From the IMG/VR virus record IMGVR_UViG_2671180854_000009, positions 1-8,627 of that record: a stretch of DNA of 8,627 nucleotides. One strand, 5' to 3'. Made by a program: the position numbers. Shown here one piece after another: positions 3,001 through 6,000 of the stretch. Each line of letters starts with the position of its first letter. The first letter of the stretch is position 1. This DNA is from a virus (taxonomy: Duplodnaviria > Heunggongvirae > Uroviricota > Caudoviricetes).

Positions 3001-6000
3001 GCAGAAGAGAGCGCTGCAAATGCTGACACTTCAGCAGGGGAGGCATCGGAGTCAGCCCGGCAGGCGGCAGAAAGTGCAGCCTCAGCAAAGCAGTCAGAGG
3101 ATGCGTCCTCGTCCTCGGCTTCTGCGGCCGCTCAAAAAGCCAGTGAGTCATCACAAAGTGCAGCAGAAGCTGAATTGTCAAGAAAGACGGCAGAAAGTGC
3201 AGCCGGTAATGCAGCCAGGGATGCAACGACCGCAACAGAAAAAGCCCGGGAGTCAGCAGAAAGCGCACAGTCAGCGGAACAAAGCAGGATAGCGGCGGAA
3301 GAGGCCGTAAACCGAATCCCCACCGTGGTGGGACCTCCCGGGCCAAAGGGGGAACCGGGGCCCGCGGGTCCTCAGGGGCCGAAGGGTGATAAGGGAGAGC
3401 GCGGTGACACCGGCCCTGTCGGGGCAACCGGCGAACGGGGACCGGCAGGTGATGCTGGTCCGGCAGGCCCGCAGGGGCCGAAAGGTGACAGGGGAGAGCG
3501 GGGAGAGACCGGTCTGACGGGAAATGCAGGTCCACAGGGTCCAAAGGGAGATACCGGTGCGGCAGGCCCGGCAGGCCCACAGGGACCGAAAGGAGAAACA
3601 GGCGCGGCTGGCCCGGTGGGGGCAACCGGACCTCAGGGACCGAAGGGCGACCCGGGGGAGACACAAATCCGTTTTCGTCTGGGGCCGGCGAGCATTATTG
3701 AGACAAACAGCAATGGCTGGTTCCCGGATACAGATGGCGCACTCATCACCGGACTGACCTTTCTTGACCCCAAAGATGCCACACAGGTTCAGGGGCTGTT
3801 TCGGCATTTGCAGGTCAGGTTTGGTGACGGGCCGTGGCAGGATGTTAAGGGGCTGGATGAAGTGGGCAGTGATACAGGCAGAACAGGAGAATGACATGAA
3901 TATACTAAAAAAACTTATGCAGTGTCTGTGTGGTTGCGGAAAGCATGATGACCGTGAACACGGGGAGTTACTTACAGCACAACTGCGTCTGGGGCCGGCA
4001 GACATCCTGGAGTCCGATGAGAATGGTATTATTCCGGAGCAGGACAGGGTAATCACGCAGGTGGTGATACTGGATGCAGATAAAAAGCAGATACAGTGCG
4101 TGGTAAGACCGCTGCAAATCCTGCGTGCTGACGGGACGTGGGAAAATATTGGCGGGATGAAGTAACCTGACAGCTTCACAAAACCGGAGTCCGGCTCCGG
4201 TTTTTGTGTTGCAATGTCCGGGGGATATTTGTTAAGTAGATGATAGAGGAGCTAATTCAACAGGGAGATAAATTAATGCCGATAAATCTGACATCTTATT
4301 TGGGGTTACAGGGGGCGAAAGTTGTCCCGGCAGTTGTTTTTTCTAAAATTTAGTCTTGTTGGGGTAAATGACATATGCCATTGATAACATCCAGCATTTC
4401 ATCAAATGTTGCTTTGCAGAGTATTGAAATATTACGTGAAGCTGCCAGACAAAACCTGATAACGAAAGATATTACTATAAATGGGCAGAAAGTTGGTATT
4501 CATTATTATCAACGCCCTGACGTTTTTTTAGTTTCTGGTTGTAAGGATGGGATGTTAAAAACATTATTAGAGTTAGGGTTAAATGGTAGCAATGAGTCAG
4601 CCAAAAGACTTCGTTCATGGCAAATTTCCTCTGTAATTGATACTCATCTGAGTTTTTTACCATTAGGTATATGCTATAAAATACTTTCAAGTTCTTTTCC
4701 TGTACATTCGGAAGAGGTTTTTTTTTCAAAAGAACATCTCAAGTGTCCAATAATATTAGATGCTCCAGATAATGGTGTTTTTATAAAGAACTCTGTAAGT
4801 GCAAAAGTTTGTAACCTATATGATAAAAATGCAATGTTAAAGTTAGTTATATCTGGTTCTCCACATCCATTAAGTAGAGAGCCAATAACAGAATCAATGA
4901 TTATGAGAAAAGATGAGTGTTATTTTGATCCCAAAACAGAGTCTTTTGTTGTAAATAATGTTTAATTTTTTATTGGTGTTATTTTCAGTGGACTAAGTTG
5001 AAGGAGTGCGATAAATGCTGCCCACGACAAATATCTCTGTAAATTCTGGAGTAATATATTTTGAAAGTCCTGTAGGTTCACCATCTAACGAGGATGTTAA
5101 AGTTGCACTCGAAAAGTGGTGCGCTGAGGGAGAATTCAGCGAAAATCGTCATGAGGTTGCATCAAAAATACTTAATGTTATAAGTACTAATGGAGAGACT
5201 TTATCAATCAGTGAGCCAATAACAACGTTACCAGACTTGCTTCCAGGTTCTCTGAAAGAACTGGTATTGAATGGATGTACAGAGCTTAAATCAATAAACT
5301 GTTTACCCCCCAACTTATCTTCATTAAGTATAGTTGGATGTTCATCATTAGAGGTTATAAATTGCAGCATACCTGACAATGTCAGTAATTTATCTTTATG
5401 CCATTGTAGTTCTTTGAAACATATAGATGGTTCCTTTCCTGAGACGCTCAGGAATTCCGTATATTTAAATGGATGTAATTCATTAAATGAATCGCAATGT
5501 CAATTCCTTGCATATGATGCCAGTCAAGGCCGTGCCTGCCTGAGCAAAGCTGAGCTTACTGCTGACTTAATGTGGTTGTCAGCTAACCGAACGGGGGAAG
5601 AGTCTGCTGAACAATTAAATTACTCTGGATGTGACTTGTCAGGTCTAAGTCTTGCAGGGCTGAATTTTGCATCAGTAAATTTTTCTGATTCCAGATTTGA
5701 TGATGCTGATCTTAGTGGCTGTAACCTGTCAGGTGCATCCCTGAAAAACACATCTTTCAAGAATTCTGTTCTGGAGGAGTGTGATTTATCTTTCTCTGAT
5801 TTGACAAATAGCACAATCAGCGCATCGTTTGATAGAGCTAATTTTAGTGGTGCTAATCTTAACAGCGCATCGTTTATTGGTTCTTCATTTAAAGAAACAC
5901 CTCCAGACCTGAAAGATGCACAGTTGGCGGGGGCTATTATAGTTCCCGGGATGGAGCTTAGAGGTGCTATTTTAGAACAAGATAATATATCTTTATCTGT

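Follow-up and report, generated by a model that had tools for sequence, protein, structure and literature searches.

Collagen-like fibres tipped by the Phage_fiber_C domain (PF06820, PfC) occur in most Shiga-toxin phages and in many effector-carrying lambdoid prophages of enterohaemorrhagic and enteropathogenic Escherichia coli (EHEC and EPEC), E. albertii, and Citrobacter rodentium. In the fibre that Ghosh et al. (PMC3368898) named EPclA, a PfN domain, a coiled-coil region, and a collagen-like region precede PfC, which is an autonomous trimerisation module, forms a distal globule of ~7 nm, nucleates refolding of the collagen helix, and was shown by size-exclusion chromatography with multi-angle laser light scattering to be a homotrimer. 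A small open reading frame (ORF) directly after such a fibre gene was described explicitly by Mondal et al. (PMC5155283) as Sp5 ORF68 and listed among the non-essential late genes, whereas the fibre gene, ORF67, is essential. Here we examine the same gene in IMG/VR virus record IMGVR_UViG_2671180854_000009, a stretch of 8,627 nucleotides (nt) that we call the window, where it encodes 89 amino acids (aa) immediately downstream of the side tail fibre gene stf. The small ORF is a stand-alone paralogue of the PfC domain of Stf, and the small protein itself is under strong purifying selection. The explanation that we tentatively favour is that it is a functional late phage gene whose product is a non-essential trimeric mini-knob, an accessory partner to the PfC-tipped fibre's distal end.

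The small ORF is a known, annotated gene that has already been catalogued and discussed in the literature. Its residues 1–89 match positions 1–89 of the 89-position profile of PHROG 576 (E=4.6e-60), and it corresponds to Sp5 ORF68, 933W L0122, phi24B gp59, and gene 24 of phage 434 and of lambda h434. The Prokaryotic Genome Annotation Pipeline calls it 'phage tail fiber C-terminal domain-containing protein', and GenBank records label it 'hypothetical', 'tail fiber protein', 'tail fiber assembly chaperone' (OM418627, by position), or 'alternate tail fiber tip' (KU977419, 'atfT'). The protein is 92–99% identical in nearly all of 296 phage records, with four records in the 80–90% band; the set includes 933W (L0122), VT2-Sakai/Sp5, phage 434, and many Stx1/Stx2 phages, and spans short-tailed as well as long-tailed lambdoid phages. 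All 296 records matched by either of the two query sequences contained both a small-type and a fibre-type PfC at an identity of at least 80%.

Formal comparison bears out the paralogy, which the first-pass annotation of this DNA had proposed from an identity of 40–45% judged by eye. Residues 366–427 of Stf and 29–88 of the small ORF align with 25 of 62 positions identical (40%) and 63% positives (BLASTP, E=9e-14), and the full 64-position PF06820 model is matched by both proteins, at 123.0 bits for Stf and 123.5 bits for the small ORF against a cut-off of 25 bits. The repeated segment had been described as the last ~60 residues of Stf; the repeat is real, but it does not reach the very end of the fibre, since PfC (residues 365–428) precedes an 11-residue tail (429–439). 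Upstream of PfC, Stf has the EPclA layout, with PfN at residues 3–135, a coiled-coil region, and collagen Gly-X-Y repeats at about 251–363. The small ORF is without the PfN attachment domain, the collagen shaft, and the 11-residue acidic tail. PF06820 is its sole Pfam match at E≤0.01, PHROGs gave only families 576 and 13758, and NCBIfam gave none. By sequence, the PDB held no solved PfC structure and had relatives only for the fibre N-terminus (9e7m) and the collagen part.

The junction between the two genes is highly conserved. The comparison covers 85 copies of the small ORF, from the window, related IMG/VR loci, and other related loci that we fetched. A single nucleotide separates the stop codon of stf from the start of the small ORF (TGAcATG) in 84 of the 85 loci, and 78 share an identical 28-nt junction that includes AGGAG. 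Every copy of the small ORF is intact, at 89 aa, and a PfC-type fibre end precedes it wherever upstream sequence exists. Accessory proteins of the fibre are the usual products of genes that follow fibre genes with this placement and coupling.

Lambda has its tail fibre assembly gene tfa at this position, and the position, the translational coupling to stf, and the strict co-occurrence with PfC fibres would all suit a Tfa-like obligate assembly chaperone of the PfC fibre, as in the positional annotation of OM418627. However, Pfam and PHROGs contain no Tfa-type or tail fibre assembly family matching the small ORF at E≤0.01, in agreement with the remark in the first-pass annotation that it does not resemble Tfa, and NCBIfam offers no family at all. 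The gene is also dispensable in Sp5 although the fibre is not (PMC5155283), and EPclA, Col-PfC, and PfC trimerise alone as recombinant proteins (PMC3368898). An obligate-chaperone role is thus largely refuted and strikes us as quite improbable, and the last two findings likewise weaken the cognate chaperone that had been offered as one option at the outset.

The same junction could be read as the site of a programmed +1 frameshift at the stf stop codon (GAA UGA C read as GAA U GAC AUG), which would place a tandem PfC-PfC tip on a minority of fibres. Here, as in a divergent locus described below, the frame of the small ORF is +1 with respect to the fibre gene, and the geometry superficially resembles that of prfB. 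The protein database of the phi24B virion proteome (10.64898/2026.04.10.717836) included hypothetical gp61-gp59 fusions named 'Fusion_6159_FS1/FS2' and labelled 'Spike or just gp59?', on which the main text is silent. Tandem PfC-like modules also occur in one fibre-like protein, P0240. Nonetheless, judged from the codon, GAA in the P site should be unable to re-pair after a +1 shift, the AGGAG is not at the prfB spacing but overlaps the shift codon, and the junction has no significant RNA structure that could stimulate a shift (z=-0.64). The junction of the divergent locus is different, with ORFs that overlap by 14 nt, and the conserved ATG and Shine-Dalgarno sequence favour independent initiation. 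Mondal et al. found no frameshift signal (PMC5155283), and the part of the phi24B proteome supplement covered here contains neither a gp61-gp59 junction peptide nor a peptide from the N-terminus of the small ORF. We therefore hold a frameshift to be highly improbable.

Protein P0240 is an observation in its own right. Its 565 residues comprise four to five PfC-like modules in tandem (…TKTVVVLDAD…GILQVRRADGTW.EIPALKG) and, after them, collagen repeats, so that domains of this kind need not be terminal knobs and can also be arrayed along a fibre.

Direct evidence of translation comes from phi24B. The virion proteome that supplements its cryo-EM preprint (10.64898/2026.04.10.717836), in the part covered here, lists two peptides exclusive to the small ORF, VITQVVILDADKK and ADGTWENIGGMK, each with the value 3 in an apparent count column, where the row totals for the fibre, gp61, are about 2,100–2,300. 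These trace peptides mean that the small ORF is translated in lytic growth, and the mass spectrometry thereby answers the first-pass concern that the ORF might be untranslated. Their low level suggests that the product is not a stoichiometric virion component.

We computed pN/pS, the ratio of non-synonymous to synonymous diversity, as a pairwise average over 65 distinct alleles, a measure that ignores phylogeny. It is 0.050 for the PfC domain of the small ORF (pS 0.136), 0.29 for its N-terminal 27 codons, and 0.11 for the whole ORF (pS 0.13), compared with 0.22 at similar pS for the fibre's own PfC from the same loci. Several positions of the fibre PfC are commonly polymorphic (AS/GN, N/H, D/G, Q/R, L/F/M, and R/Q), while PfC in the small copy is almost invariant. 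Purifying selection of this strength acts on the small protein itself, and because pN/pS is so low at this synonymous diversity, it excludes a decaying remnant and argues against a reservoir that functions only as DNA.

That the small ORF is a functionless remnant of a displaced fibre 3' end might have been expected from the many host prophages that are defective, the window's included, and from the dispensability of the gene in Sp5 (PMC5155283). The 85 intact copies, the pN/pS of 0.05 at a pS of 0.14, the orthologue retained in a distant lineage, and the phi24B peptides all point the other way. The selection data already refute this explanation unless they are a recombination artefact, and we find it scarcely credible.

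A different use of the DNA would be as a recombinational reservoir, a spare C-terminal cassette or 'alternate tail fiber tip' (KU977419) that replaces the fibre PfC by deletion or recombination, in line with the "intragenomic reservoir" for fibre variation that Mondal et al. suggested (PMC5155283). The two copies are direct repeats 310 nt apart that share, in the window, a 14-nt identical block at the start of the domain, and rare natural fusions or deletion chimeras do exist, such as P0063 (collagen with a small-type PfC) and P0189 (the small-ORF N-terminus with a Stf-type PfC). On the other hand, selection acts at the protein level and extends to the N-terminal extension, the Shine-Dalgarno sequence and ATG are conserved, translation is detected in phi24B, and a near-invariant cassette would leave only one alternative on offer. 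Only 9 of the 85 loci have the 14-nt block in both copies, 2.9 million IMG/VR contigs contain no Stf-to-small junction, and the window contains no invertase, inverted repeats, or reverse transcriptase. A reservoir is in our judgement improbable, and the recombination cassette raised in the first-pass annotation is weakened by the gene's own Shine-Dalgarno sequence and ATG, conserved N-terminal extension, low pN/pS, peptides, and near-invariance. We separately considered an invertible or diversity-generating tip cassette of the kind served by Mu Gin, P1 Cin, or diversity-generating retroelements, and rejected it: the copies are direct, the only inverted pair in the window is a 16-nt chance-like match, and no ORF in the window encodes a recombinase or reverse transcriptase.

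A divergent relative dates the duplication in relative terms. The representative protein P0231 traces to a locus outside E. coli (GCA_008387015.1, L085) that has no match among 5426 E. coli genomes. At positions 110–748 this locus encodes a 212-aa non-collagen fibre ending in a divergent PfC, followed by a small ORF of 79 aa that overlaps the fibre gene by 14 nt, has an AGGAGG, and carries the same N-terminal motif; after it come a hairpin, NleG, and a SopA-like gene. Between the window and this locus the small proteins are 64% identical and the fibre PfC domains 38% identical, while all paralogue comparisons fall at 28–40%. The two copies therefore represent old, separate orthologous lineages, of which the stand-alone copy is evolving more slowly. 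Since the fibre with a small PfC partner is here of a non-collagen kind, the PfC pair does not depend on a collagen-like shaft.

Beyond this locus the distribution is narrow. A segment spanning the 3' end of stf and the small ORF is present in 698 of the 5426 complete E. coli genomes, at a median of 12 places per genome. When 1.84 billion representatives were searched with a profile, 95 proteins were recovered, nearly all of them E. coli fragments or chimeras, and the family is tiny outside Escherichia; we set aside weak repeated matches to CarboxypepD_reg and SprB repeat proteins as similarity at the level of motifs. Copies do exist in C. rodentium and E. albertii. In C. rodentium (loci L086–L089, about 4479–5237), an internal deletion has reduced Stf to 166 aa and fused a PfN fragment to PfC, and the small ORF, at 78 aa and with a 4-residue deletion, is still open, within a prophage remnant beside NleG and other effector genes. 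The genome-contig scan matched only E. albertii and a 725-bp contig (NZ_JPLE01000138.1) filed as Xanthomonas pisi DSM 18956; its small ORF is 93% identical to that of E. coli, and the record is almost certainly an assembly contamination.

The 27 residues ahead of PfC are less constrained but have a recognisable pattern. An L-x-G-C-x-K motif is common to the small ORF, the divergent locus, and the C. rodentium homologues, within a cross-lineage pattern M-x-I-[LF]-K-K-[LI]-x-x-x-L-x-G-C-x-K that reads as a short amphipathic helix with one or two cysteines after it. The helix, at residues 3–12 with a hydrophobic moment of about 2.2, is a low-confidence prediction from AlphaFold2 (AF2) secondary structure. 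The Cys-rich segment CLCGCGKH reported in the first-pass annotation, a proposed metal-binding cluster, is present in the window but only partly conserved: the consensus over the 85 loci is RLCGCGKH, CLCGCGKH being the window's own version with the rare R10C change, several copies have Y or R in place of the polymorphic C14, and one large protein cluster replaces G13 by S. A divergent homologue has two cysteines, at positions 10 and 14.

Prompted by L-x-G-C, we considered a lipoprotein or exclusion protein of the T5 Llp or phi80 Cor type and rejected it for want of a signal peptide. The lipobox pattern (PROSITE PS51257-type, Cys at 15–35) fails in the window, consensus, L085, and C. rodentium sequences, where the putative h-region includes K, R, or Q and the cysteine comes no later than position 14. 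Seven consecutive A residues at 3905–3911 (CTA AAA AAA CTT, encoding L-K-K-L), close to where the small ORF begins, form a potential slippery or transcriptional-slippage site; it is probably incidental, because the divergent locus does not keep it (AAG AAA).

In the explanation that we favour, translation starts from the gene's own Shine-Dalgarno sequence and ATG and is coupled to termination of stf, so that the end of the late operon yields the small protein along with the fibre. It would form a homotrimeric 'mini-knob' composed of an N-terminal amphipathic helix, a Cys-containing linker, and a 64-residue all-beta PfC. Such a soluble mini-knob, with no PfN domain, would be unable to attach to the tail but could contact the distal end of the fibre, binding its tip and either assisting assembly or modifying the tip, and may thus act like a tip-binding accessory of the Tfa/gp38 type while lying outside those families. 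We favour an accessory partner because synthesis of the protein goes along with that of the fibre, because it is never found without a PfC-ended fibre, and because it stays near-constant while the tips vary; that it trimerises, touches the fibre, and confers a benefit is what we infer.

Several results weigh against this explanation. Deletion of the gene from Sp5 leaves plaque formation and lysogenisation on K-12 in place (PMC5155283), and the small ORF is not needed for recombinant EPclA, Col-PfC, or isolated PfC to trimerise in laboratory E. coli (PMC3368898). The phi24B peptides, in the part of the supplement covered, stand far below the level of a stoichiometric tip component and resemble the contaminants mentioned by the authors, such as Lom and Bor, which are also detected at low levels (10.64898/2026.04.10.717836). 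The identities of 64% for the small proteins and 38% for the fibre PfC domains are unlike those of a tightly co-evolving cognate pair. The AF2 monomer model of the small ORF, built from a 26-sequence alignment, is unreliable (predicted local distance difference test score, pLDDT, 52; predicted template modelling score, pTM, 0.32).

Some of these same results would fit a free knob that works away from the virion, as a soluble trimer released at lysis or acting in the infected cell, where it would bind receptor-bearing debris or a conserved ligand on the host surface, thereby protecting progeny from unproductive adsorption or blocking superinfection. The missing PfN attachment domain, the far sub-stoichiometric amount in the phi24B virion preparations as listed in the available part of the supplement, the dispensability of the gene in laboratory plaque assays (PMC5155283), and a near-invariant PfC suggestive of a conserved partner are all compatible with such a decoy or blocker. 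Yet without a signal peptide or lipobox the protein could not reach the envelope before lysis, and PADLOC gives no family for it at E≤0.01. Nor does the small copy follow the variable positions of the fibre PfC, which makes competition for the same ligand unlikely, and a decoy is hard to square with a small copy that evolves more slowly than, and independently of, the fibre domain. We consider a decoy unlikely, though not far-fetched.

A distinctly unlikely variant of contact with the fibre is a second tip acting in trans, in which a homotrimer stapled by the N-terminal helix and Cys motif would dock non-covalently on the fibre PfC knob or exchange subunits with it. If this were so, PfC fibres would have either a second binding specificity, itself highly conserved, or a removable cap that comes off during purification, and a detachable duplicated fibre tip would control host range in a way so far undescribed for lambdoid phages.

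What PfC-tipped fibres bind is a question that the phi24B authors ask explicitly in their preprint (10.64898/2026.04.10.717836). As a constant companion of these fibres that is more conserved than the tip, the small ORF is a reasonable handle on the spread of the phages and of the toxin and effector genes that they carry. New here are the estimates of selection, the evidence that the duplication is old and asymmetric, the finding that the cysteines are conserved only in part, and the connection to proteomic data that show translation; the analysis narrows the possible roles of the small ORF and reveals no new kind of system.

The window as a whole is a fragment of a lambdoid prophage of an EHEC/EPEC-type E. 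coli (Table 1). Positions 1–1693 agree at 99.9% with the lysis region found in many E. coli prophages, the agreement stops within the lysozyme gene, and Lom comes directly after the truncated lysozyme, placing the break near 1693–1917; the head and tail genes up to J are therefore all missing. This lysozyme/Lom junction is absent from the 5426 complete E. coli genomes (0 places covering at least 80% of the query). A gap of ~690 bp (775–1460) separates holin from lysozyme and holds a minus-strand 104-aa ORF (1030–1344; PHROG 1853, E=3.5e-47), possibly a moron within the lysis cassette. The SopA/NleL-like HECT-type effector is an intact 790-aa ORF in the window, and the closest complete genome, NZ_CP101292.1, has this region annotated as two coding sequences, a pentapeptide repeat protein and a hypothetical protein.

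Hairpins flank the stf/small-ORF pair. The one directly after the small ORF marks the boundary at which the phage structural block ends and the effector cargo genes begin; the 50-nt stretch that contains it (4166–4215) folds at -23.1 kcal/mol (z=-4.86), although a simple terminator scan of the window did not list it, and an Rfam search of the window gave no match. The divergent locus likewise has a hairpin after its small ORF, at about 985–1012. Another strong terminator-like hairpin lies between lom and stf (2543–2564), and with hairpins both before stf and after the small ORF, late transcription of the two genes presumably requires Q-type antitermination.

Table 1. Features of the window, with positions counted from its first nucleotide.
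Feature	Positions	Strand	Details
Class II holin	568–774		
Truncated lysozyme	1462–1734		90-aa ORF
Lom	1917–2516		
stf, EPclA-type collagen-like side tail fibre	2575–3894	+	439 aa; PF08400 (7e-69), PF01391, PF06820 (6e-36), PHROG 366
PfC domain of Stf, aa 365–428	3667–3858	+	PF06820 positions 1–64 of 64
Coupling junction	3885–3898	+	AGGAG 3885–3889, stf stop TGA 3892–3894, one base, ATG 3896–3898
Small ORF, stand-alone PfC protein	3896–4165	+	89 aa and stop; ATG start, stop 4163–4165
N-terminal extension of small ORF, aa 1–27	3896–3976	+	Predicted amphipathic helix ~3–12, L-x-G-C-x-K motif, variable linker
PfC domain of small ORF, aa 28–89	3977–4162	+	PF06820 positions 1–64, 4.5e-36
A-tract/GC hairpin/T-tract, terminator-like	4177–4208	+	Directly 3' of small ORF
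NleG	4375–4965		Type III effector
SopA/NleL-like pentapeptide-repeat ligase	5015–7387		Type III effector
NleC	7641–8627		Type III effector

Set against described systems, the closest match is the group formed by Sp5 ORF68, 933W L0122, phi24B gp59, and 434 gene 24, which is the same 89-aa protein directly after a PfC-ended fibre gene. Nothing substantive differs, except that the window copy has R10C and sits in a remnant prophage without head and tail genes. The fibre PfC of EPclA and EPclB (PMC3368898) belongs to the same PF06820 family, but the small ORF is only 40% identical to the fibre PfC, has an extension with a helix and Cys motif in place of the collagen shaft, and its non-synonymous sites change about four times more slowly. 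Lambda Tfa, T4 gp38, and Mu U are likewise encoded by small genes immediately downstream of a fibre gene and co-expressed with it; their products bind the C-terminal region of the fibre and are needed for its function, but they are not paralogues of the fibre tip, whereas the small ORF has no sequence relationship to them, is dispensable in Sp5, and belongs to a fibre that folds without it. The invertible G and C segments of Mu and P1 (Sv/Sv' with U/U') also keep a second version of the fibre C-terminus beside the fibre gene. In contrast to those segments, the copies in the window lie on the same strand with no inverted repeats or invertase, and the second copy has its own start and encodes a separate protein.

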